64,000 bases of DNA from Gammaproteobacteria bacterium (GCA_003695825.1 RFHK01000021.1:642-64641); one strand, 5' to 3'. Positions 4,272-33,913 are shown, counted from the stretch's first letter. Program-made: numbers and translations. Notes: generated from the letters alone by a model not told the origin.

Positions 4272-6389
4272 ATGCATGCATCCCCCGGACCACGCCTGCG
4301 GGCGCTGTCCCTGTGCCTGTGCCTCGCCCTGCCCCTCCCTGCCCTGGCCGCCCCGCCCCCCTTGCGGCTGGCCTCCCACGACATGCTCTACATCGAGATC
4401 CTCAAGCCGCTGCCGTTCACCGACGTGGAGACGAAGGTCATCCACCGCAAGGAACCCGTGGTACCCCAGCCGGCCCCAGATGCCGCCGGCGTGCTCAAGA
4501 CGGTCCCGGGCAGCGACGTCAACCGCAACGGCGCCCTGACCGGCATCGTCCAGTACCGTGGAATGTACGGCGACCGCGTCGACGTGCACGTCGACGGCAT
4601 GTACGTCGGCTCGGCCGGGCCCAATGCCATGGACCCGCCGCTGGCCCTGGTCCCCCGGGGCCAGCTGCAGGCGGTCGTGGTCCACCGCGGGATCGCACCG
4701 GTCTCTGCCGGCATCGGCACCTTCGGCGGCGCCATCGAGGCGCGCTCGCTGACCAGCCATTTCGGCGACGGCCCGGCCTTCCACAGCGACGGCCTGGTAC
4801 GCTTCGACGGCAGTTCCGCCGACCGGGGACGGGCCTTCAACCTCTTCGCCGGCTACGCCAACGACCGGCACCGCATGCACCTGGCGTTGACCCGCGAGGC
4901 CGGCAGCGACCGGGACACCCCCCTCGGCCGCCTGCACAGCACCCGCTTCGAACGCGACCAGGTGCGCGCCGGCTACGGCTTCCGGTCCGGGACCACGGAA
5001 CTCGACGTCGAGGCCCGCTACAACGACACCGGCAAGACCGGCACGCCCAGCCTGCCGATGGACATCCTCTATATCCGGGGAACCACGGGCCGCATCCGGC
5101 TCCGCACGGACCGGGGCGGCGGGCGCCTCGATGCCACGCTCTACGGCGGCTCCATGAAACACGAGATGGACAACTTCAGCCTGCGTCCCAACGGAATCCG
5201 GATGCACAAGCAGCGCCTCACGCACGCGGAAAGCGACAGCATCGGCATCCGCCTCGGTTGGCGCCCCGGGGATGGCCGGTCGAAACTGGGCGTGGACCTC
5301 TTCCGCACCACGCACGATGCGCGCATCAAGGATCCCACCCGCGCGGCCTTCTTCGTCGACAATTTCCGCGACGTGCGGGTGCGCTTCCTCAGCCTGTTCG
5401 GTGAACGCGAAGGAAAGGCCGGGCGTGGCCACTGGTCAGCCGGACTGCGCCTCACCCGGGCCGAGTCCGATGCCGGGACGGTCGACACCTCCATGGCCAT
5501 GACGATGCCGGCCGTGGCCGGCCTGCGCGACCGTTTCAACGCCGCCGACCGCTCCCGGGCCGACACCCTGGTTGACGCCGTGTTCGAGTACAGCCTGCCC
5601 CTTTCGGGGACGACCGAGCTCGTCGCTTCCCTGGGGCACAAGATGCGCAGTCCCTCCTACCAGGAACGCTACCTCTGGCTGCCGCTGGAATCCACCGGGG
5701 GTCTGGCCGACGGCAATACCTACGTGGGCAAGGTCGATCTGAAACCGGAGCGATCCTGGCAATTCGAACTGGGATTCGACACGCGCGAGGCGGACTGGAC
5801 CTTCTCCCCGCGCCTGTTCTACCGGCGCATCGACGACTACATCCAGGGCATCCCCGCCACGGACACCCAGGTCCTCATGGTCAACAACATGATGGGCGGC
5901 AGCACGCCCCCGCCCGTGCTGCAGTTCGCCAATGTCGATGCCAAGATCTACGGGTTCGACGCCCTGGCCGGCTGGGCCTTCGCCGAAGGCTGGCGACTCG
6001 AAGCCGACCTCAGCTGGACGCGCGGAGCCCGGCGCGACATCGATGACAATCTCTACCGCATCGCCCCACCCCGGCTCGACCTCGACCTGCGCCGGCGCTG
6101 GTCCGCCTGGGAGGCCCACCTGGGCCTGCAGGCCTACGCGCGGCAGAAACGGGTCTCGGCGACCAACCACGAGCAACCCACCTCCGGGTACGCCGTCTGG
6201 TCCGCCGGCCTGGCCTGGAGACCCGACAAGCGCCTGCGCGTGCGTCTCGACGTCGACAATCTCGCCGACCGTCGCTACTACGACCACGTCGGCGGCTACA
6301 ACCGGGTCGCCGGCAACATCGTACCCGTGGGCAGCCGGCTGCCGGGTACCGGCCGCAATGTCCAGCTCCGTGTGCACTGGCGCTGGTAG
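4272..6389 (+). CDS. TonB-dependent outer-membrane receptor (substrate unknown)
   Basis: Signal peptide MHASPGPRLRALSLCLCLALPLPALAAP, plug-like region (VVHRGIAPVSAGIGTFGGAIEARS), long beta-barrel repeats, C-terminal ..GRNVQLRVHWRW. Start taken at ATG 4272, not the upstream ORF-track start. Confidence 0.85.
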   Translation: MHASPGPRLRALSLCLCLALPLPALAAPPPLRLASHDMLYIEILKPLPFTDVETKVIHRKEPVVPQPAPDAAGVLKTVPGSDVNRNGALTGIVQYRGMYGDRVDVHVDGMYVGSAGPNAMDPPLALVPRGQLQAVVVHRGIAPVSAGIGTFGGAIEARSLTSHFGDGPAFHSDGLVRFDGSSADRGRAFNLFAGYANDRHRMHLALTREAGSDRDTPLGRLHSTRFERDQVRAGYGFRSGTTELDVEARYNDTGKTGTPSLPMDILYIRGTTGRIRLRTDRGGGRLDATLYGGSMKHEMDNFSLRPNGIRMHKQRLTHAESDSIGIRLGWRPGDGRSKLGVDLFRTTHDARIKDPTRAAFFVDNFRDVRVRFLSLFGEREGKAGRGHWSAGLRLTRAESDAGTVDTSMAMTMPAVAGLRDRFNAADRSRADTLVDAVFEYSLPLSGTTELVASLGHKMRSPSYQERYLWLPLESTGGLADGNTYVGKVDLKPERSWQFELGFDTREADWTFSPRLFYRRIDDYIQGIPATDTQVLMVNNMMGGSTPPPVLQFANVDAKIYGFDALAGWAFAEGWRLEADLSWTRGARRDIDDNLYRIAPPRLDLDLRRRWSAWEAHLGLQAYARQKRVSATNHEQPTSGYAVWSAGLAWRPDKRLRVRLDVDNLADRRYYDHVGGYNRVAGNIVPVGSRLPGTGRNVQLRVHWRW

Positions 6390-6482
6390 CAGGCACTACG
6401 CCAACCGTGCGCCGACGAGGCGTCGCCGGGAAATTTCAGCAAGGCTGCTCGCCTCGGCGTTGCGTACCTGACCTGCTCCACG

Positions 6483-6510
6483 CGGTCCCGCGGCCACGGC
6501 CGCGGGACCG
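6483..6510 (+). terminator. perfect 13-bp GC hairpin downstream of the TonB-dependent receptor (no clear U-tract)
   Basis: cggtcccgcggcc-ac-ggccgcgggaccg read directly from the sequence. The function as a terminator is inferred. Confidence 0.35.
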
Positions 6511-6583
6511 ACGTTCACTTGCCTGCCTGGAGGAAACTCCTTACCCTGTCGCCTGCGAGACAGCGATCCACGGGAGCTGGCAG

Positions 6584-7267
6584 ATGAGCGCAGCGCAGGC
6601 CGAACGCGATTTCGACTTCGAGCAGGCCCGTTTCAACCTGGTCGAACAGCAGATCCGTCCCTGGAACGTGATCGACGAGCGCGTGCTCGCCGTGCTCGGC
6701 GGCGTACCGCGCGAGGACTTCGTGCCGCCGCGCTACCGCAACTCGCTCGCCTTCGCCGACCTCAACCTGCCGCTGGGCCACGGTGAGGTCATGATGACCC
6801 CGAAACAGGAAGCCCGCCTGCTGCAGAGCCTCCAGGTCCGTCCCGAGGACGAGATCCTCGAGGTCGGCACCGGCAGCGGCTATGTCACCGCCTGCCTGGC
6901 ACGGCTCGGCGGCCGGGTACACAGCGTGGACATCCACGAGGACTTCCTCGAGGCCGCCGACCGCAAGCTCCTGGCACACGGCATCACCAACGTCACGCTG
7001 GAGCAACGCGACGCCGCGAGCGGCTGGCCGGAATCGGACCGTTTCGACGTCATCGCCGTGACCGGCTCGCTGCCCGAACTGCACCGGGGTTTCCACCGGG
7101 CGCTGCGCCCGGGCGGCCGCCTGTTCCTGATCGTCGGTTCGCCCCCGTTGATGGAGGCCCGACTGATCACGCGCGAGTCGGAAGACCAGTGGTTCGACGA
7201 ACCCCTGTTCGAAACGGCCATCCCGCCGCTCGTCAACGCCCCGCACCACGTACACTTCACGCTCTGA
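6584..7267 (+). CDS. protein-L-isoaspartate O-methyltransferase-family (Pcm-like) SAM methyltransferase
   Basis: 227 aa with SAM motif ILEVGTGSGYVTACLA and PRYRNSLAFADLNLPLGHGEVMMTPKQEA. Start at MSAAQAE (ATG 6584). Confidence 0.8.
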   Translation: MSAAQAERDFDFEQARFNLVEQQIRPWNVIDERVLAVLGGVPREDFVPPRYRNSLAFADLNLPLGHGEVMMTPKQEARLLQSLQVRPEDEILEVGTGSGYVTACLARLGGRVHSVDIHEDFLEAADRKLLAHGITNVTLEQRDAASGWPESDRFDVIAVTGSLPELHRGFHRALRPGGRLFLIVGSPPLMEARLITRESEDQWFDEPLFETAIPPLVNAPHHVHFTL

Positions 7268-7269
7268 AC

Positions 7270-7590
7270 GTGAGAGAATTGCGTCCACGCGAGGCTGCGG
7301 CGCTGCTCGCCGGGCCGCACCCGCCCAGGATCCTGGACGTACGCGAGCCCTGGGAGTACGCGCTTTGCCATCTCGAGGGGGCCTTGCTGATCCCGATGCG
7401 CGAGCTCCCTGGGCGCATTAGCGAGCTCGACCCGGAGGTGCCCCTGCTGGTCGTCTGCCATCACGGCATTCGCAGTCGGATGGTGTGCCGCTACCTGGAG
7501 AGGGAACACGGTTTTCGGAACCTGATGAATCTCGAGGGCGGCGTCGCCGCCTGGGCGGCCGAGGTCGATCCCGGCATGCCCACCTACTGA
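7270..7590 (+). CDS. single-domain rhodanese (sulfurtransferase)
   Basis: 106 aa. ILDVREPWEY..LIPMREL and the active-site loop VVCHHGIRS. GTG start is 3 nt after the preceding stop. The ORF-track start at 7189 overlaps the upstream gene. Confidence 0.8.
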   Translation: MRELRPREAAALLAGPHPPRILDVREPWEYALCHLEGALLIPMRELPGRISELDPEVPLLVVCHHGIRSRMVCRYLEREHGFRNLMNLEGGVAAWAAEVDPGMPTY

Positions 7591-7602
7591 AGGAGCCTTG
7601 CC

Positions 7603-8961
7603 ATGCGGAAGGAAGCGGACATCAAACCCAAGGCAACGGCAGGTACCCTGGCCGTCGTCCTGGCCCTGGCCTCTTCCCCGCTGTGGGCGATCGATCTCTA
7701 CGGCGCCTGGCAGGAAGCCCATGACCATGCCCCCGGGCTCCAGGCCGCTGCGGCGGCACGCGCGGCCGCCTCCGAGTCCCGGCCCCTGGCACGCGCCGGC
7801 CTGCTGCCGAACCTGGCCCTTTCGGCCAACGTCACACGCACCCAGTACGATCCGCGCACGAGTGGCCCCACCACCTATTCCACCAACAAGAGCTACGCGA
7901 TCTCGCTCTCGCAACCGCTCTACCGCCGGGACCGCTGGATCGCGCTCGAGCAGGCCGACAGCCAGGTGCGCCAGGCGGAGGCCGAGTATGCCGCCGCCGA
8001 GCAGCAATTGATGCTCGACGTGGCCAGCCGCTACTTCGACGTGCTCGCCGCGCAGGACAATTTGCGCTTCGCCAGGGCGGAGAAGAAGGCCATCGCCCGC
8101 CAGCTCGAACAGGCGAAACAGCGGTTCAAGGTGGGACTGTCGGCGATCACCGACGTCCACGAGGCCCAGGCGCGCTACGACCTGGCCGTGAGCGCCGTGA
8201 TCGCGGCCGAGAACCGGCTCGATTCGGCCCGCGAGGCCCTGCGGGAACTGGTGGGTCCCAAGGTGGCCCAGGATGCCCTCGCACCCCTGGTCGCCGGGGT
8301 GCCCTTGCGCAAGCCCGACCCCCCGGACATGCAGGCCTGGGTGAAGCGCGCCGTGGAAGGCAACCTGCAGTTGCGTGCACTGCGCGCGGCCGTGGAGTCC
8401 GCCCGCCGCGAGGTCGAACGTCAGCGTGCCGGTCACTACCCGACGCTCGACGCCCAGGCCAGCTTCACCTACCAGGACGCCAACTTCGGCGGTGTCTTCC
8501 CGCTCAAGCGCAACGATTCGGCCATCGGGTTGCAGCTCAGGCTGCCGCTCTATGCCGGCGGCGCCATCGTCAGCGCGACCCGCCAGGCGGCCGACCGGTA
8601 CGAGGAAGCACGCGAGAAGCTCGAGCAGCAGCGCCTGGCCACGGAACGCGCCGTGCGCGACGCCTACCGCGGCGTGATCAGCGGCATCGCCCAGGTCCGG
8701 GCCATGGAACAGGCGCTGCGGTCCACGGAAACGGCGCTGGAGGCGGCCCAGGCCGGGTTCGAGGTGGGCACGCGTACCATCGTGGACGTCCTGGACGCCC
8801 AGCGCGAGAAGTACCGGGCACGACGCGATCTCGCCCGGGCCCGCTACGACTACCTGCTCAGCACCCTGCGGCTCAAGCAGGCCGTCGGCTCGCTCGCCCC
8901 GGAGGACCTGGAACGCATCAGCCGGTGGATGCGGCAAGCCGACGATGACGATGCCTCCTGA
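7603..8961 (+). CDS. tolC: outer-membrane efflux channel TolC
   Basis: 452 aa. Signal peptide, IDLYGAWQEAHDHAPGLQAA start typical of TolC, two coiled-coil/barrel repeats. AGGAG upstream of the ATG. Confidence 0.9.
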   Translation: MRKEADIKPKATAGTLAVVLALASSPLWAIDLYGAWQEAHDHAPGLQAAAAARAAASESRPLARAGLLPNLALSANVTRTQYDPRTSGPTTYSTNKSYAISLSQPLYRRDRWIALEQADSQVRQAEAEYAAAEQQLMLDVASRYFDVLAAQDNLRFARAEKKAIARQLEQAKQRFKVGLSAITDVHEAQARYDLAVSAVIAAENRLDSAREALRELVGPKVAQDALAPLVAGVPLRKPDPPDMQAWVKRAVEGNLQLRALRAAVESARREVERQRAGHYPTLDAQASFTYQDANFGGVFPLKRNDSAIGLQLRLPLYAGGAIVSATRQAADRYEEAREKLEQQRLATERAVRDAYRGVISGIAQVRAMEQALRSTETALEAAQAGFEVGTRTIVDVLDAQREKYRARRDLARARYDYLLSTLRLKQAVGSLAPEDLERISRWMRQADDDDAS

Positions 8962-25726: not shown

Positions 25727-27526
<1,800 letters not shown>

Positions 27527-27604
27527 GACGCGGAATTCCTCGGCCAGTCACGGAAAGGCGGGAAGGATACGGCCAGCCCGCGGGGGGACGCAAGCCGCCT
27601 GGAG

Positions 27605-27647
27605 ACAGAGAAAGGTCCGGCGCCCGCCCCGGGCGGGCCACCGGACC
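27605..27647 (-). terminator. rho-independent terminator downstream of the FmdB-like gene
   Basis: Minus strand: ggtccggtggcccgcccggggcgggcgccggacc followed by tttctct. Confidence 0.55.
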
Positions 27648-27677
27648 CTGAGCGCGGGAGGGGGTCTCGAGGAGGAT

Positions 27678-27953
27678 TCAGCCTCCGCAACCGCAGGTGC
27701 CGCCGGCACAGCCCCCGGCCGCCTTCTTCTCGGAGCCGCCGCTGTCGGATTCGGCGACGTTCTTGCGGTTGCCGGACTTGAAGTCGGTTTCGTACCAGCC
27801 GCTGCCCTTGAGGCGGAACCCGGCCGCGGACACCTGTTTCTCGAGCGCCGGGCGACCGCACTCCGGGCAATCCTTGAGCGGCGCATCGGTCATCTTCTGC
27901 AATGCCTCGAGCTCGTGGCCGCACTCGGTGCATTTGTATTCGTAGATCGGCAT
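27678..27953 (-). CDS. FmdB-family zinc-ribbon putative regulatory protein
   Basis: MPIYEYKCTECGHELEALQKMTDAPLKDCPECG.., Gly/Cys-rich tail. 91 aa. Confidence 0.8.
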   Translation of the reverse strand: MPIYEYKCTECGHELEALQKMTDAPLKDCPECGRPALEKQVSAAGFRLKGSGWYETDFKSGNRKNVAESDSGGSEKKAAGGCAGGTCGCGG

Positions 27954-28190
27954 AGTCTCACCTTCTGTTGCTCGCAAACCCCATATATCAGCGATTTCCG
28001 ATATTGTAACCGAATGTGGGGACACCTGCCGAGCAGATCAACCCGGCCGGTTCCACCACCCTTTGCAGGGATATCGGCCGCTCCGCCGCCCACTCCAGCC
28101 TGCGAATGCGTACAATGGCGCCCGCCAAGCCGCCGGGCGGGGGCACCTCCGGCCCGGGCCCGGCCGCGCCTGTCGATTGCCGCGAAGAGG

Positions 28191-30005
28191 ATGCGACGTA
28201 CCGGATACACGGAGATCCCCGACACCAGCGCGCAGGACCTGCGGACGCTGCGCGCCCTGGTGCCCTTCCTGTGGGCCTACCGCGGGCGGGTCGCCGCGGC
28301 GCTGGCCTTCCTGGTGCTGGCGAAGGCCGCCAACGTGGGCGTGCCCCTGGTACTCAAGCACATCGTCGACGCCCTCGACGCCTCGCGCAATCCCCACCTC
28401 GTGCTGCCGCTGGCCCTGCTCGCCGCCTACGGCCTGATGCGGCTCGGCTCCTCGGCCTTCAACGAGCTGCGGGACTCCATCTACGCCCGGGTACGGCACG
28501 GGGCCATGCGCCGTATCTCCGTGCGCGCGCTCGAACACTTGCACCGCCTCTCGCTGCGCTATCACCTGGAGCGGCGTACCGGCGGCATCTCGCGCGACCT
28601 GGAACGCGGTACCCGCGCCGTCAGCTCGCTGCTCAACTACATGGTGTTCAATCTGCTGCCGACTCTGGTCGAGGTGCTGCTGGTCGCCGGCATCCTGCTG
28701 AAGAAATACAACCCCTGGTTCGCCATCGTCACCTTCGCCTCGGTGGTGATCTACGCCTTCTACACCTTCGCGATCACCGAGTGGCGGATGAAGTTCCGCG
28801 TGGCCATGAACCGGCTGGATTCCGAGGCCAACACGCGCGCGATCGACAGCCTCATCAACTACGAGACCGTCAAGTACTTCGGCAACGAGCCCCTGGAGGT
28901 GCGCCGCTACGACGAGACTCTGCGCCGGTGGGAGGATGCGGCCGTGCGCAGCCAGACCTCGCTGTCGGCACTCAACGTCGGCCAGGCGGGCATCATCGCG
29001 CTCGGCGTGACCCTCGTCATGGTGCTGGCCGCGCGCGGCGTGGTCGACGGGCGGCTCACGCTGGGCGACCTGGTCCTGGTCAACGCCCTGTTGCTGCAGC
29101 TCTTCATCCCCCTCAACTTCCTGGGCATCGTCTACAGCCAACTCAAGCATGCGCTTGCCGACCTGCGCAGCCTCTTCCAGGTGCTGGAAAGGGAACCGGA
29201 GATCCAGGACCGCCCGGGTGCCAGGCCGCTGGAAGTGGGCGCCGGCGAGGTGCGCTTCGAGCACGTCCACTTCGCCTACGATCCGGACCGGCCCATCCTG
29301 CACGACGTGAGCTTCGTGATCCCGCCCGGGCGGAAGGTGGCCGTCGTGGGGCCGAGCGGCGCGGGCAAGTCCACGCTGGCGCGCCTGCTGTTCCGGTTCT
29401 ACGACGTGCAGTCCGGCAGCATCCGCATCAACGGCCAGGACATCCGCGACGTCACCCAGGCCAGCCTGCGCGCGGCCATCGGCATCGTCCCCCAGGACAC
29501 GGTGCTCTTCAACGACACCCTGCTCTACAACATCCGCTACGCGCGGCCCGAGGCCCGCTTCGAGGAAGTGGTCGAGGCCGCGAAACTCGCCAACATCCAC
29601 GACTTCATCGTCTCCCTGCCCAAGGGCTACGACACCGTGGTGGGGGAGCGGGGCCTGAAACTGTCCGGCGGCGAGAAGCAGCGCGTGGCGATCGCGCGCG
29701 CCATCCTCAAGAACCCGAAGATCCTGGTCTTCGACGAGGCCACCTCCAGCCTGGACTCGGTCTCCGAGCGCCAGATCCTCGACGCCATGCGGCGGGTGGC
29801 CGCCCATCACACCACCCTGGTCATCGCCCACCGGCTTTCCACCATCGTCGATGCCGACCACATCCTGGTCATGGAACGGGGACGCATCGTGGAGCAGGGT
29901 ACGCACACGAGCCTGCTGGAGATGAACGGCATCTACGCCCGGCTGTGGGCGCTGCAACTGGAAGAGCGGCGCAAGGCGAAGGCCGCGGAGGCCGCGTCGC
30001 TCTGA
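28191..30005 (+). CDS. ABCB/ATM1-type half-transporter (fused permease and ATPase exporter)
   Basis: 604 aa from MRRTGYTEIP. Six TM helices, then GPSGAGKSTL Walker A, LSGGEKQRVAIARA, ILVFDEATSSLD. Confidence 0.88.
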   Translation: MRRTGYTEIPDTSAQDLRTLRALVPFLWAYRGRVAAALAFLVLAKAANVGVPLVLKHIVDALDASRNPHLVLPLALLAAYGLMRLGSSAFNELRDSIYARVRHGAMRRISVRALEHLHRLSLRYHLERRTGGISRDLERGTRAVSSLLNYMVFNLLPTLVEVLLVAGILLKKYNPWFAIVTFASVVIYAFYTFAITEWRMKFRVAMNRLDSEANTRAIDSLINYETVKYFGNEPLEVRRYDETLRRWEDAAVRSQTSLSALNVGQAGIIALGVTLVMVLAARGVVDGRLTLGDLVLVNALLLQLFIPLNFLGIVYSQLKHALADLRSLFQVLEREPEIQDRPGARPLEVGAGEVRFEHVHFAYDPDRPILHDVSFVIPPGRKVAVVGPSGAGKSTLARLLFRFYDVQSGSIRINGQDIRDVTQASLRAAIGIVPQDTVLFNDTLLYNIRYARPEARFEEVVEAAKLANIHDFIVSLPKGYDTVVGERGLKLSGGEKQRVAIARAILKNPKILVFDEATSSLDSVSERQILDAMRRVAAHHTTLVIAHRLSTIVDADHILVMERGRIVEQGTHTSLLEMNGIYARLWALQLEERRKAKAAEAASL

Positions 30006-30017
30006 CAGAATTCGGTA

Positions 30018-30734
30018 TCAGATGCGCACGTAGGTCCAGCCTTCCTCGAGGCGGTGGAGGATGTGATCGATCGCCGTGGTATCGGTCCGCACGTGATCGA
30101 TGAGAATGACCTTCTCGCCGCGTTCACGCACGCGGCGGATGGCGTTGGCACAGGCAATGAAGGTGATGCGCCCGTCGTAGCGCTGCATGAGCCCGGCCAC
30201 CTGCCGCACGTAGGGAGAGACGTCTGCCCGCAGCAGGTCGATGCCCCCGGCGTTGGTGAGCACCTCCACGCGCCCGCCTTCCCCGGCATAGCGCTCGAGC
30301 AGCCGCTCGGCCTCGGTCAGGGCCGTGTGGAACTTCGCCGGGTCGTCCTCGGCGAGGTGGAGGAGGACCCGGTGGCCATGCACGGCTGCCCGGTGCAGCA
30401 CCACGGCCTGGAGCGCGGGTGTCCGGGCATGCTCGCACCACCCGCCCACCAGGGCCCCGCACAGAAACACCAGCAGGCAGGCGGCCGCCAGCCCGAAACG
30501 GCGCGGCAGGCCTGCCCGGTGCGGCTGGAGGCGCGGCGGCGGGGCCACCTCTTCGAAGGCCTGCCGTACCCATTCCTTGGTCATGCGCATGCGGCAGACC
30601 TGCTCCCGCAACCGCACGTCGGCTTCCAGGGCCTCGAGCATGCGTTGCCGTTCCGCCGCCGGCAGTTCGTCGTCGATGAAGGCCTGGATGCGGATGTCCG
30701 CGTCGCAGTTCCAGTCGTCGTACCTCGTGCTCAT
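30018..30734 (-). CDS. membrane anti-sigma factor with a C-terminal (periplasmic) DsrE-like domain
   Basis: N-terminus IQAFIDDELPAAERQRMLEALEAD (anti-sigma type), one TM helix (FGLAAACLLVFLCGALVGGW), C-terminal domain alignable with the 31472-31924 product. ATGA overlap with the ECF sigma gene. Confidence 0.65.
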   Translation of the reverse strand: MSTRYDDWNCDADIRIQAFIDDELPAAERQRMLEALEADVRLREQVCRMRMTKEWVRQAFEEVAPPPRLQPHRAGLPRRFGLAAACLLVFLCGALVGGWCEHARTPALQAVVLHRAAVHGHRVLLHLAEDDPAKFHTALTEAERLLERYAGEGGRVEVLTNAGGIDLLRADVSPYVRQVAGLMQRYDGRITFIACANAIRRVRERGEKVILIDHVRTDTTAIDHILHRLEEGWTYVRI

Positions 30735-31318
30735 GGCTCGCTCCGTACCAGTCGCGCCGCGGGCCTGCCGGCCGGGCGCCGCTCCGATTCGTGCTCCGGG
30801 TCCTGCCAGGCCATCAGCCGACGGCACAGCCCCTGCCGGGCCCGGTTGAGGCGGCTCATCACGGTCCCGATCGGGATGTCGAGAATCTCGGCGACCTCCG
30901 CGTAGGAGAACCCCTCGAGGTCCACCAGGGTCACCACCTCGCGCTGCAACACCGGCAGGTCCAGGATGGCCCGGCGCATGGCATGGATGCGCTCCAGCCG
31001 CGCGACCTGGCCGATCACGTCCTGCTGGAGGTCGAGCAGGGCCTCGTCGAGCGCCACGTCCGGCCGCCGGCGCCGCAAGTGCTGGCGCCAGCAGTTGTGC
31101 AGGATGCTGTGCAGCCAGGCGTCGAGGCGCTCCGGGTCACGCAGCTCGGAGTGGTGCCGGAGCGCCCGCTCGAGGCTCTCCTGCACCAGGTCGTCGGCCA
31201 CCATGCGGTCGCCACACCAGGAATAGGCGATGCGGTACAACCGCGGGCGGCGCTCGGCCACCGCCTGTTCCAACCGCCGGCGGGCATGGGCCTGGCATAG
31301 GCGTTCCAAGACTCCCAT
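30731..31318 (-). CDS. ECF (group IV) sigma-70 factor
   Basis: 195 aa. Region 2 (DDLVQESLERALRH..LDAWLHSILHNCW) and region 4 HTH (GFSYAEVAEILDIPIGTVMSRLNRAR). Confidence 0.9.
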   Translation of the reverse strand: MGVLERLCQAHARRRLEQAVAERRPRLYRIAYSWCGDRMVADDLVQESLERALRHHSELRDPERLDAWLHSILHNCWRQHLRRRRPDVALDEALLDLQQDVIGQVARLERIHAMRRAILDLPVLQREVVTLVDLEGFSYAEVAEILDIPIGTVMSRLNRARQGLCRRLMAWQDPEHESERRPAGRPAARLVRSEP

Positions 31319-31345
31319 GCCAGGGGAGATGCGGCGAGTGCCGAT

Positions 31346-31388
31346 TTTATTCGCCCCCCGGAAATTTCCCTTCCCACCCCGAATAAAC
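31346..31388. promoter_or_regulatory. inverted repeat TTTTATTCG..(GGAAATTTCC)..CGAATAAA in the divergent ECF-sigma / DsrE-like intergenic region
   Basis: Read directly. 8-nt perfect arms (31347-31354 and 31381-31388) flank the 10-nt palindrome GGAAATTTCC (31361-31370). The function is inferred. Confidence 0.3.
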
Positions 31389-31471
31389 CCGGTACCGACC
31401 GACTCTACCTTGCGTGGCCGGCGGGTGTTTGCCCCCGGCCGAGTACAACCGCATCAAACGAGGAGATCGAC

Positions 31472-31924
31472 ATGCAACCCCATCGACGCAGCTTCCTGCT
31501 GGCATCGATCGCCGCCCTGTGGCTGGGACTGGCAGGCACGCTCTCGGCGGCGGAGGATGCCAAGCCCTTCGCGGAACAGCACATCGTCCTGCAGATCAGT
31601 GACCGGGATCCCTTCAAGCAGACCCTGGTCCTGAACGTAGCCAACAACCTGCTCCGGTACTACGGACCGGACAAGGTCGACATCGAGATCGTGGCCTTCG
31701 GTCCCGGGCTGCGCCTGCTGTTCGCGGACAACAGCAACCGGGGCCGCATCGAGTCCCTGGTGCAGAACGGGGTACGCTTCTCCGCCTGCAAGAACACCAT
31801 TCGCAACATGACCAGGAAACTGGGGCACGCGCCCGCGCTCAATCCCCATGCCGTGAAGGTCAGCGCCGGCGTGGTACGCATCATCGAGCTGATCGACAAG
31901 GGCTACAAGCTCATCAAGCCCTGA
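31472..31924 (+). CDS. exported DsrE/DsrF-like (COG1416-type) small protein with a twin-arginine-like signal
   Basis: MQPHRRSFLLASIAALWLGLAGTLSAAED signal. HIVLQISDRDP..IEIVAFGPGLRLLFAD..RFSACKNTIRN fold signature. AGGAG RBS. Confidence 0.65.
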   Translation: MQPHRRSFLLASIAALWLGLAGTLSAAEDAKPFAEQHIVLQISDRDPFKQTLVLNVANNLLRYYGPDKVDIEIVAFGPGLRLLFADNSNRGRIESLVQNGVRFSACKNTIRNMTRKLGHAPALNPHAVKVSAGVVRIIELIDKGYKLIKP

Positions 31925-31962
31925 TCCCCAAGCCACCGAGGATTCACGAGGAGAGACCGTCC

Positions 31963-33249
31963 ATGAACAGGAACGACCGCCTGTCGCGCATGCTCGCCGC
32001 CCTGCTGGGCGCCTGCACCCTTCCGGTCCAGGCCGCCAACTGGCTCCTGCTGCAAGGCACCGAACCGCCGGGCTCCGCCGGCCGTGCCAAGCTGTGGGGA
32101 TTCATCCAGGCCCAGTATCAGAAGGATTTCTCGGACCCCTTCGTCAAGTCGGACGGTACCGAAGTCTACGTGCCGCCCAAGCTGATCGGACCGGACCTGG
32201 ACGACCAGTCGATGTTCAACGTCAACCGGGCACGCATCGGTGTCCGCGGCGCCAACTTCCCGCTCGATGCCAAGACCAACTATTTCGTCCTCGTCGAGAT
32301 GGGCAACAACGCCATCACCCAGGGAACGGGCGCTTTCGCCCGCCTCACCGACGCCAGCATCACGCTCAACCACATTCCGGGAGCGCGCATTCGCGTGGGC
32401 CTGTTCAAGTACCCGGGTGCCGAGGAGGGCCTGCAGGCGATCCACGTCTTCGACTACATCAATTTCACCACGGTGTCGAACCAACTGTTGCTGGAACGCT
32501 TCCCGGAATCGACAGACAGCAACCGCAAGGCCAGCCCGCTGCCCGCCGCGATGAACCGGATCACCCGGCCCGTGGGCGCCTTTCGCGACGTCGGCGTCCA
32601 GGTCTTCGACGCCTTCCGCCGCGGGGACTGGGAACACAGCTACGCGGTGATGTTCGGCAACGGCAACGGGCTCAACCTCGGCAACGACAACGGCAAGGGC
32701 AACGTCTACCTCTACTGGTCCAGCGCCCGGATCTTCGGCGGCAAGGGACCGCGTCGCGAGGACTGGAAGACCTTCGCCTGGTGGCAGAAAGGCAGGCGCC
32801 TGGACGTCTACGACACCACCAGGTCGTTCGACCGAATCCGCTGGGGCCTGGGTACCAAGTACCTCAAGAAACCCTTCCGCGTGACGGCCGAATACATGAA
32901 GGGCAAGGGGATGATCTTCCAGGGGCCCCACCGCCCGCAGGACCTGTTCAACGACCTGAAGGCCGACGGCTGGTACCTCGAGGGTGGCTGGTACATCCCG
33001 GGCACGCGCTGGGAGCTCGATGCCCGCTACGACCGCTACGTCCGGGACGAGAACCATCCGACCTCGGCGTCCGGGGACCGCAGCCGCTTCCGGAAGTTCA
33101 CGCTCGGCGCCCAGTACCATCTCAACCGGAAGACGCGGGTCAACCTGGAATACGCCTTTCGGGACTTCTCCTCGGACACGGCCAAGGTGGACGCGCAGCT
33201 GAAGGACGTCAAGGGACGCTTCGCCGTGCAGGTCACGGCGATCTTCTGA
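31963..33249 (+). CDS. outer-membrane porin (phosphate-selective porin O/P-like beta-barrel)
   Basis: Signal peptide ..LGACTLPVQAANW, alternating beta-strand pattern, C-terminal ..RFAVQVTAIF (terminal Phe). Confidence 0.7.
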   Translation: MNRNDRLSRMLAALLGACTLPVQAANWLLLQGTEPPGSAGRAKLWGFIQAQYQKDFSDPFVKSDGTEVYVPPKLIGPDLDDQSMFNVNRARIGVRGANFPLDAKTNYFVLVEMGNNAITQGTGAFARLTDASITLNHIPGARIRVGLFKYPGAEEGLQAIHVFDYINFTTVSNQLLLERFPESTDSNRKASPLPAAMNRITRPVGAFRDVGVQVFDAFRRGDWEHSYAVMFGNGNGLNLGNDNGKGNVYLYWSSARIFGGKGPRREDWKTFAWWQKGRRLDVYDTTRSFDRIRWGLGTKYLKKPFRVTAEYMKGKGMIFQGPHRPQDLFNDLKADGWYLEGGWYIPGTRWELDARYDRYVRDENHPTSASGDRSRFRKFTLGAQYHLNRKTRVNLEYAFRDFSSDTAKVDAQLKDVKGRFAVQVTAIF

Positions 33250-33267
33250 CACCGATCCGGTCGAACA

Positions 33268-33299
33268 GGGGGCCCCGGCACGCGGGGCTCCCCCGTTTT
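33268..33299 (+). terminator. rho-independent terminator after the porin gene
   Basis: gggggccccggcacgcggggctccccc followed by gtttt. Confidence 0.6.
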
Positions 33300-33913
33300 C
33301 AATCCCCGCCGCCCTCCTCCGCCTCGCGGCGCTCGCGCCGCATCTCGGCATCCCGCTGCATGATGTGGCTGCAGATCAGGTCCCGGTCGGATTCCCGAAT
33401 GTGCTCGAATGCCACGGCCACCTGCCAGGGCCGGTTGCCGATGTCGACGTCGATACGCTTGCAGTGCACCACCCGCCCCACGGCGAGGATGCCCAGCGCC
33501 TCGGGCAGGAGGATCAGGCGGACCTCGAGTCGCTCGTCCTGCCCGTATTGCCGGGCGCTGGGAAAGACCAGCCCGCCGGCGCTGAGATTGACCCGCACTG
33601 GTTCCCGGGAATCCGGGGCCACCTGTTCGAGCACGAACAACCGGGCCAGGTGGTTCAGCTTCTGGTCGATCTGGCGCAGGCAGCGGGCGAGCTCGGGGGA
33701 ACGGTTGGAGAAACCGCCGAGCAGGTGGGCCATGGCCCGCGAACCGGACTCGAAGTTCGCCGCCACGGTGAAGCGGTCGGGGACCCGGTCGGCCAGGGTC
33801 TCGCGGATGCGGAGCACGTCCGTCTCCCCGACGGGGCGGTGCTCGAGCAGCACGAAATCGTCGATCCGGTAGAACTCCCGGCGCTCGCGCGAGGGACGGC
33901 AGGGATGCGACAT
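33299..33913 (-). CDS. PilZ-domain (c-di-GMP-binding type) protein
   Basis: 204 aa. REFYRI N-terminal element and REPVRVNLSAGGL (RxxxR..N-x-S-x-x-G PilZ signature). Starts 2 nt after the motB-like stop. Confidence 0.75.
   Translation of the reverse strand: MSHPCRPSRERREFYRIDDFVLLEHRPVGETDVLRIRETLADRVPDRFTVAANFESGSRAMAHLLGGFSNRSPELARCLRQIDQKLNHLARLFVLEQVAPDSREPVRVNLSAGGLVFPSARQYGQDERLEVRLILLPEALGILAVGRVVHCKRIDVDIGNRPWQVAVAFEHIRESDRDLICSHIMQRDAEMRRERREAEEGGGD

Follow-up and report, generated by a model that had tools for sequence, protein, structure and literature searches.

Class I anti-sigma systems such as sigmaE-RseA, AlgU-MucA and SigW-RsiW pair an extracytoplasmic function (ECF) sigma factor with a co-transcribed anti-sigma factor, which has an N-terminal cytoplasmic helical domain, a single transmembrane helix and an extracytoplasmic C-terminal domain; their autoregulated promoters carry an AAC/AAT-type -35 and a CGTCT-type -10 element. 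To our knowledge, how sulfur oxidisers sense extracytoplasmic reduced sulfur and how zero-valent sulfur is transported through their periplasm are poorly understood. Here we describe a locus at positions 30018-33249 of a 64,000-nucleotide stretch of DNA (hereafter the window) from a Thiohalobacteraceae metagenome-assembled genome (MAG; GCA_003695825.1), a Sox-type sulfur-oxidising gammaproteobacterium. The ECF sigma/anti-sigma system encoded there has a sensor domain of a kind not described in the literature searched: the extracytoplasmic domain of the anti-sigma factor has the DsrE/MTH1491 fold with an invariant cysteine, and a secreted protein of the same family is encoded divergently, followed by a porin. 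This architecture of a sigma factor and an anti-sigma factor with a DsrE-like domain is almost certainly real. The nearest precedents come from two sides. The Sinorhizobium meliloti ECF26 sigma factors RpoE1 and RpoE4 respond to sulfite, and likewise serve an inorganic sulfur compound through a small regulon beside the sigma operon; however, their output is the sulfite dehydrogenase SorT, and no DsrE-like sensor, secreted DsrE-like protein or porin has been reported for them (PMC3511301). No SorT-like gene was found near the module in the window. On the other side, a periplasmic DsrE-like sulfurtransferase of the Methylovirgula thiovorans HY1 sox operon is mentioned in passing as a possible sulfur carrier (PMC9371685). 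Like the free-standing protein described here, it is an exported DsrE-like protein of a sulfur oxidiser, proposed without biochemistry to carry periplasmic sulfane sulfur, but the likeness is by description only and no link to a sigma/anti-sigma pair is reported for it (PMC9371685).

The locus consists of two divergent operons. The sigma gene and the anti-sigma gene overlap through ATGA (the sigma TGA and the anti-sigma ATG, read as gccATGAgc) and are predicted to be translationally coupled. This arrangement of an ECF sigma gene overlapping the gene of a 238-aa anti-sigma factor with one transmembrane segment had been proposed in a first-pass annotation of the window, and the reading frames and, for the sigma factor, Pfam agree with it. 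The features of the locus, in window coordinates, are the following.

30731-31318, minus strand: ECF (group 4) sigma-70 factor, 195 aa (Pfam, NCBIfam)
30018-30734, minus strand: single-pass anti-sigma factor, 238 aa, its ATG overlapping the sigma stop codon
30555-30713, minus strand: predicted cytoplasmic anti-sigma domain, residues 8-60, three helices in the AlphaFold2 (AF2) model with a predicted local distance difference test score (pLDDT) of 90-96
30441-30497, minus strand: predicted transmembrane helix, residues 80-98 (hydropathy; AF2 helix 82-100)
30024-30374, minus strand: predicted periplasmic DsrE-like (MTH1491-type) sensor domain, residues 121-237 (phmmer, Foldseek)
30150-30152, minus strand: codon of Cys195 (FIAC) in the sensor domain, invariant in the family
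31322-31355, minus strand: predicted ECF promoter of the sigma/anti-sigma operon (GAATAAA at 31352-31346, N16, TCT at 31329-31327)
31378-31411, plus strand: predicted ECF promoter of the DsrE-like/porin operon (GAATAAA at 31381-31387, N16, TCT at 31404-31406)
31472-31924, plus strand: free-standing secreted DsrE-like protein of type 1, 150 aa (phmmer, AF2, Foldseek)
31787-31789, plus strand: codon of Cys106 (FSAC) in the free protein, in the same alignment column as Cys195
31963-33249, plus strand: outer-membrane porin of the OprO/OprP (Porin_O_P) type, 428 aa (Pfam)
33268-33295, plus strand: GC hairpin, with a following TTTT that extends the feature to 33299, a possible weak terminator (folding energy)

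The sensor domain and the free-standing protein proved to be related to each other and to MTH1491. Residues 69-237 of the anti-sigma factor were 29% identical to the product of 31472-31924 (BLASTP E 4e-11, far beyond chance), and each of the two independently matched MTH1491 (PDB 1l1s) in phmmer searches, with E-values of 7e-9 for the sensor and 2e-8 for the free protein. Twenty-four homologues went into an AF2 model of the 238-aa protein (pLDDT 81.8). Its sensor domain matched 1l1s in Foldseek with a template-modelling score (TMt) of 0.88, a root-mean-square deviation (rmsd) of 1.9 Å and an E-value of 1e-8, and also matched 2pd2 (ST0148), 1jx7 (YchN) and 3mc3 (DsrE/DsrF-like). The model of the free 150-aa protein (pLDDT 87.4) matched 1l1s with a TMt of 0.92 and, after that, DsrE/F-like proteins, 2hy5_A (DsrE, E 1.8e-3) and 2d1p_A (TusD, E 7e-3). 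At the family level, a profile of 26 sequences hit 1l1s with an E-value of 7e-26, and the Pfam DsrE model PF02635 was matched by 14 of the 26 members (best 1e-12); a type-2 member from Thiobacillus reached 49.7 bits. Profile comparison and predicted fold are thus what the assignment of the two window proteins to the DsrE family rests on, and the results agree with the first-pass annotation, which had related the C-terminal domain of the anti-sigma factor to the divergently encoded protein and given both a DsrE-like fold.

The archaeal proteins MTH1491 (1l1s) and ST0148 (2pd2) are the closest structural relatives, sharing the fold (TM 0.88-0.92, rmsd 1.5-1.9 Å), the strand-Cys-helix segment (F-C-A-C-S-N-T, compared with F-I-A-C-A-N-A in the sensor and F-S-A-C-K-N-T in the free protein) and the C-terminal G-W/Y-x-Y-I motif. 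However, they have no described function and are cytoplasmic and free-standing, whereas the two copies at this locus are a secreted protein and a domain joined to an anti-sigma factor on its periplasmic side. With DsrEFH and TusBCD (2hy5, 2d1p) the family has the superfamily fold in common (Foldseek E 2e-3 and 7e-3). Those proteins form cytoplasmic heterohexamers with F/H (C/B) partners and carry a C-V-A-A-A-x-R-R-G motif, whereas the window proteins are exported or membrane-anchored and only distantly related to them, and do not belong to a cytoplasmic heterohexamer set of this type. A separate dsrE/tusD and dsrF/tusC pair lies on contig C204 of the same genome, which also has soxXYZAB and dsrE/tusD-like genes outside the window.

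The cysteine was present in all 194 homologous domains (from about 96 loci) and was the only invariant column in the mixed alignment of sensor and free domains. Both AF2 models place it at a strand-helix junction, which in the sensor is formed by a strand at 190-195 and a helix at 196-204. The first-pass annotation had stated that both proteins keep a single Cys in an F(I/S)AC motif; the motif is indeed present in both, but the anti-sigma factor contains a further periplasmic Cys, residue 100, which borders the membrane and is not conserved.

The remaining parts of the anti-sigma factor resemble the class I layout. The putative cytoplasmic anti-sigma domain consists of three helices in the AF2 model (8-20, 26-38 and 40-60), contains a conserved AF(V/I)D(G/D)(Q/E)L motif, and scores 16.9 bits against Pfam zf-HC2, below the cut-off of 22.2. 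Because the zinc motif H-x3-C-x2-C is absent from both the 238-aa protein and the 24-sequence alignment, this is not a zinc-binding anti-sigma (ZAS) protein. Residues 80-98 form the sole hydrophobic segment (Kyte-Doolittle mean 2.29), with four K/R among the 15 residues before it and one after, which predicts an N-in/C-out orientation; since the sigma-binding domain is N-terminal, the DsrE-like domain is expected to face the periplasm. We regard this periplasmic location, already proposed in the first-pass annotation, as highly likely from the predicted topology. In the AF2 model a disordered linker (103-118) joins the transmembrane helix to a confident alpha/beta domain (121-237); the N-terminal half of the helix is Ala-rich, and A84 is invariant. 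Moreover, all the free relatives of the sensor domain have signal peptides, indicating that the DsrE-like fold works outside the cytoplasm in these organisms. Compared with RseA, MucA and RsiW, the extracytoplasmic domain is thus of a different kind, being a DsrE/MTH1491 fold with an invariant Cys. Further differences are the small predicted regulon of two to three promoters, a sigma mRNA that is probably leaderless and the absence of an RseB-like partner gene.

The sigma factor itself is, by its domain matches, of the standard ECF type with regions 2 and 4 only (Pfam Sigma70_r2 9e-15 and Sigma70_r4_2 4e-17; NCBIfam TIGR02937 84.3 bits against a cut-off of 42.9). Its nearest solved relatives are SigE, SigH and SigW; all NCBIfam equivalog models stayed below their cut-offs for this product, and no named ECF group was reached.

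The interval between the sigma gene and the DsrE-like gene contains two back-to-back copies of an ECF-type motif, GGAATAAA-N17-(C)GTCTA, one facing each operon, and TCTA is usually preceded by CG or GC. Two matches were found in the window, against 0.01 expected. In 10 of 10 seed loci, the interval between the sigma gene and the divergent gene held exactly one motif per orientation at fixed spacing. A position weight matrix (PWM) derived from the 20 sites of these seed loci was then applied to 71 other loci, where it found a site toward sigma in 62, toward the divergent gene in 56 and in both directions in 51, although many of these loci belong to relatives of Thiobacillus, so that the counts overstate their independence. 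Elsewhere in the same loci, the background was 11 hits in 523 kb (0.02 per kb). Because the motif pair recurs in 51 of the 71 loci against such a low background, it is very probable that the sigma factor controls both its own operon and that of the DsrE-like protein and the porin; for the second of these targets taken separately, the conserved promoter sequence makes the assignment quite likely. Control of the DsrE-like/porin operon by this sigma factor had been suggested beforehand, and the same motif on both operons, in a pairing conserved across many genera, agrees with the suggestion.

In a PWM scan of the genome that contains the window, the five best hits included both window sites and the promoter of another sigma gene, on contig C44. 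A larger regulon in this genome was rejected: the other two hits lie upstream of leuC on C46 and on C148; they are either rich in AT or devoid of TCTA, face no plausible target and look spurious. An unlinked type-2 DsrE-like gene bears the motif in one complete relative (score 25.4), whereas more distant secreted DsrE-like paralogues lack it. On the sigma side, 7 nt separate the end of the -10 element from the sigma start in the window, and about 6 nt do so in most loci; as this start lacks a preceding Shine-Dalgarno sequence, the sigma/anti-sigma mRNA is probably leaderless (31316-31355, minus strand, in the window). The arrangement is conserved in about 50 related loci, from Thiohalobacteraceae to Thiobacillus. 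The DsrE-like gene has a GAGGAG ribosome-binding site.

The fusion of an anti-sigma factor with a DsrE-like domain is widespread. Full-length homologues formed 48 clusters at 90% identity, and a library at 50% identity contained at least 529 representatives at E<=1e-30, the best 150 of which were all 223-303 aa long. The first-pass annotation had proposed looking for the same fusion in other genomes, and it was present in 20 of the 21 sampled genomes of the window's family, often twice. An ECF sigma gene lay immediately upstream in 79 of 80 loci, which were all the loci with enough upstream sequence, and in most loci a secreted DsrE-like gene, often with a porin, was found divergently upstream. 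The hosts include Thiohalobacter (among them T. thiocyanaticus Hrh1), Thiobacillus (T. denitrificans RG, T. thioparus DSM 505) and Thioalkalivibrio, along with Thiohalomonadaceae, Ectothiorhodospiraceae, Acidiferrobacteraceae and Thiotrichaceae. With the exception of one MAG labelled Rhizobium, all named hosts belong to sulfur-oxidiser lineages. A full-text literature search returned no description of a DsrE-like sensor on an anti-sigma factor, in keeping with the earlier remark that this is not a described architecture, and DsrE is absent from the main text of the ECF reclassification paper.

In a tree of 61 non-redundant domains and two archaeal structures, the true sensor domains formed one clade (SH-aLRT 97) on a stem of about 1.1 substitutions per site from the free proteins, which indicates that the fusion arose once and long ago. 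The free proteins fell into two clades: type 1, linked to the porin and including the window's protein, and type 2, which neighbours sigma in Thiobacillus and forms a tandem with type 1 in a single genus of Thiohalobacteraceae. The sensor domains are only 25-30% identical to either type. The single sensor clade and its long stem led us to reject the idea that the sensor part of the anti-sigma gene is a recent local copy of its neighbour. The "paralogue" relation claimed for the two window proteins is thus correct in the family sense only: the divergence is ancient, and on the sequence tree the free neighbour is a relative of the sensor and not its source.

The genome encodes a second paralogous sigma/anti-sigma(DsrE) pair (group B; C44:6739-8090, within the stretch 6642-8090) outside the window, which lies beside pilU at the contig end. 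In relatives, pilU and groESL flank the group B pair, which has neither a DsrE-like gene nor a porin as a neighbour. In the window's genome its promoter also carries the motif (score 23.6), and cross-recognition of promoters by the two sigma factors is therefore possible. Two complete genomes have only the group B fusion and no free type-1 or type-2 gene, which argues against obligatory sensing of a free paralogue.

We favour the reading, with a probability of roughly 0.55, that the system is an autoregulated ECF switch in which a sulfur signal acts via Cys195 and the DsrE-like/porin operon is the output. In the resting state, the anti-sigma factor would bind sigma in the cytoplasm through its zinc-free three-helix domain, cross the membrane once and expose its DsrE-like domain with Cys195 to the periplasm. 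A periplasmic reactive sulfur species, such as polysulfide or another sulfane-sulfur or thiosulfonate donor, would modify Cys195, upon which the modified domain would make the anti-sigma factor a substrate of regulated proteolysis or change its oligomeric state. Release would probably proceed by regulated proteolysis through the linker, which is disordered, and the first, Ala-rich half of the transmembrane helix. The released sigma factor would then transcribe the two divergent promoters, and thereby its own operon and the DsrE-like/porin operon; the porin would admit anionic sulfur compounds, and the secreted DsrE-like protein would carry them in the periplasm. The output side of this proposal is supported by sequence and comparative evidence. 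For a sulfur species as the signal, with Cys195 as its point of action, which we infer from the fold, the cysteine and the lifestyle of the hosts, the odds fall slightly short of even. The first-pass annotation had suggested that the signal may be a periplasmic sulfur species or the loading state of the paralogue.

Several observations weigh against the favoured reading. By the Pfam DsrE model, the free 150-aa protein scores 17.8 bits, below the cut-off of 22.7, and the 238-aa anti-sigma factor has no match. The equivalence of the family Cys to DsrE Cys78 is only suggested: the best hhalign alignment pairs the family Cys with the classic Cys78 of the genome's own DsrE/TusD on C204, but at an E-value of 0.39, without statistical weight. 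The sensor clade, standing on its long stem, could have a different ligand. No sox genes occur within 4-8 kb of the fusion in about 96 loci, except for a weak SoxB-like match in one, and for the group B pair, both on C44 and in two complete relatives, no target could be recognised, next to it or elsewhere. Both the promoters and the leaderless start are predicted, and the motif counts carry the Thiobacillus bias noted above.

Other inputs were weighed against the same evidence. Protein-to-protein persulfidation, in place of free ligand binding, would release sigma if sulfane sulfur that came in by the porin, or was produced by Sox or other periplasmic enzymes, passed to the secreted carriers of types 1 and 2 and, once these were saturated, on to Cys195. 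We consider such a persulfide relay doubtful; if true, it would represent a new input principle for ECF signalling and a first entry point to the ways in which chemolithotrophs keep track of zero-valent sulfur and transport it across the envelope. Alternatively, the sensor might bind no small molecule and instead form mixed oligomers with the induced secreted DsrE-like proteins, so that the amount or sulfur-loading state of the free carrier sets sigma activity, as in CpxP feedback. The fold and the Cys common to sensor and target would suit this arrangement, as would the adjacency of the genes in many genera. MTH1491-type proteins are oligomeric, and ST0148, a close structural match, has been used as an oligomeric building block in the designed cage 8uja. 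However, the sensors form one old clade of low identity to either free type, and in the two complete genomes that have the fusion and neither type-1 nor type-2 gene, the other DsrE-like genes carry no motif, which makes sensing of such a partner unlikely.

The cysteine also admits inputs other than sulfur, since a single invariant thiol is a generic target of arsenite or thioarsenate, selenite or tellurite, soft metals and oxidants, in which case the porin and the DsrE-like protein would serve detoxification. The porin faintly resembles the selenite/tellurite porin ExtI, but this match (NCBIfam E 0.006) lies far below the cut-off and is not significant. An adjacent pair of hypothetical 'DsrE/F-like' genes in Thioalkalivibrio (Tv.) thiocyanoxidans (G372_RS0107725/30) is up 3.5- and 21-fold under arsenite, and the orthologous pair in Tv. 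jannaschii falls (PMC6620896). These genes are not beside a sigma gene, however, and could not be mapped to the present family, so we rejected this arsenite transcriptome as expression evidence for the module. Given also that the family is found in sulfur-oxidiser lineages apart from the MAG labelled Rhizobium, a non-sulfur thiol sensor appears improbable. The least probable input, and a very unlikely one, is generic envelope stress of the RseA/MucA type, whereby a misfolded outer-membrane protein or a similar cue is sensed by a site-1 protease and the DsrE-like domain is merely a protective cap without a ligand. The single-pass layout with its disordered linker between membrane and domain, the porin as one target and a DegS/AlgW-like protease gene two genes downstream in Thiobacillus loci all fit this view. 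Yet a passive cap needs no Cys conserved in 194 of 194 domains, the tiny predicted regulon holds DsrE-like genes and one porin but no envelope-repair genes, and the protease linkage is limited to Thiobacillus, where it lies beside housekeeping pet genes.

Should a sulfur signal through Cys195 be correct, the system would add a new class of sensor domain to ECF signalling. Exported DsrE-like proteins have so far been only hypothetical carriers (PMC9371685), and the module connects them with a regulator of their own, a defined promoter sequence and one residue that is a candidate for the reactive site. The idea is directly testable in culturable carriers of the module (Thiobacillus denitrificans, T. 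thioparus and Thiohalobacter thiocyanaticus). The sigma factor and its promoters also form a compact, probably orthogonal pair for synthetic circuits.

As for the products of the divergent operon, the 150-aa protein begins with a signal peptide. Its twin-arginine-like RRSFLL sequence, pointed out in the first-pass annotation, is present in the window (HRRSFLL); however, the signal peptides of the orthologues are ordinary ones without RR, so the twin-arginine translocation (Tat) route is doubtful and is not claimed here. Further subtypes of secreted DsrE-like proteins occur in these sulfur oxidisers, at least five per complete genome (for example, in the genome of the window, at C10:3033-3500, minus strand). 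Every one of them carries a signal peptide and shares the Cys, but the ECF promoter motif is missing throughout, and together they make up a sizeable, apparently unstudied periplasmic set. The porin, which in many loci is syntenic with the type-1 gene, is by its domain matches a porin of the OprO/OprP type, a family marked by anion (phosphate or polyphosphate) selectivity, which is putative for this product (Pfam Porin_O_P 7e-11, 42.4 bits against a cut-off of 20.9; Porin_4 2.5e-9). It starts with a signal peptide and ends in ...VTAIF, with a C-terminal Phe, and sequence searches found no solved relative. The porin after the free gene was therefore identified correctly from the outset, but the terminator assigned to it is weak: the hairpin at 33268-33295 (-28 kcal/mol, z -1.2) is unremarkable in energy, is followed by only TTTT and was not called in a consensus terminator scan.

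Regarding the surroundings, in Thiobacillus loci (e.g. T. denitrificans RG, 4641-7874) the anti-sigma gene is followed by genes for a DUF255/thioredoxin-domain (Thioredox_DsbH) protein and a DegS/AlgW-like trypsin-PDZ protease, and then by petA; the protease may be a site-1 protease or reflect coincidental housekeeping synteny. In the window, an ATM1/HMT1-like ATP-binding cassette (ABC) exporter with fused membrane and ATPase domains (28215-30005, plus strand) converges on the anti-sigma gene. A functional link to this and the other flanking genes (aspartyl-tRNA synthetase, PilZ, MotAB) was rejected, their synteny being kept only in the closest genera, and the adjacency of the exporter is treated as local gene order. 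Long overlapping antisense or out-of-frame open reading frames are found at 27510-30103 and elsewhere in the window, for example at 28016-30103 (plus), 28038-29957 (minus) and 31903-33351 (minus); these are artefacts of base composition (about 68% GC) and not genes.

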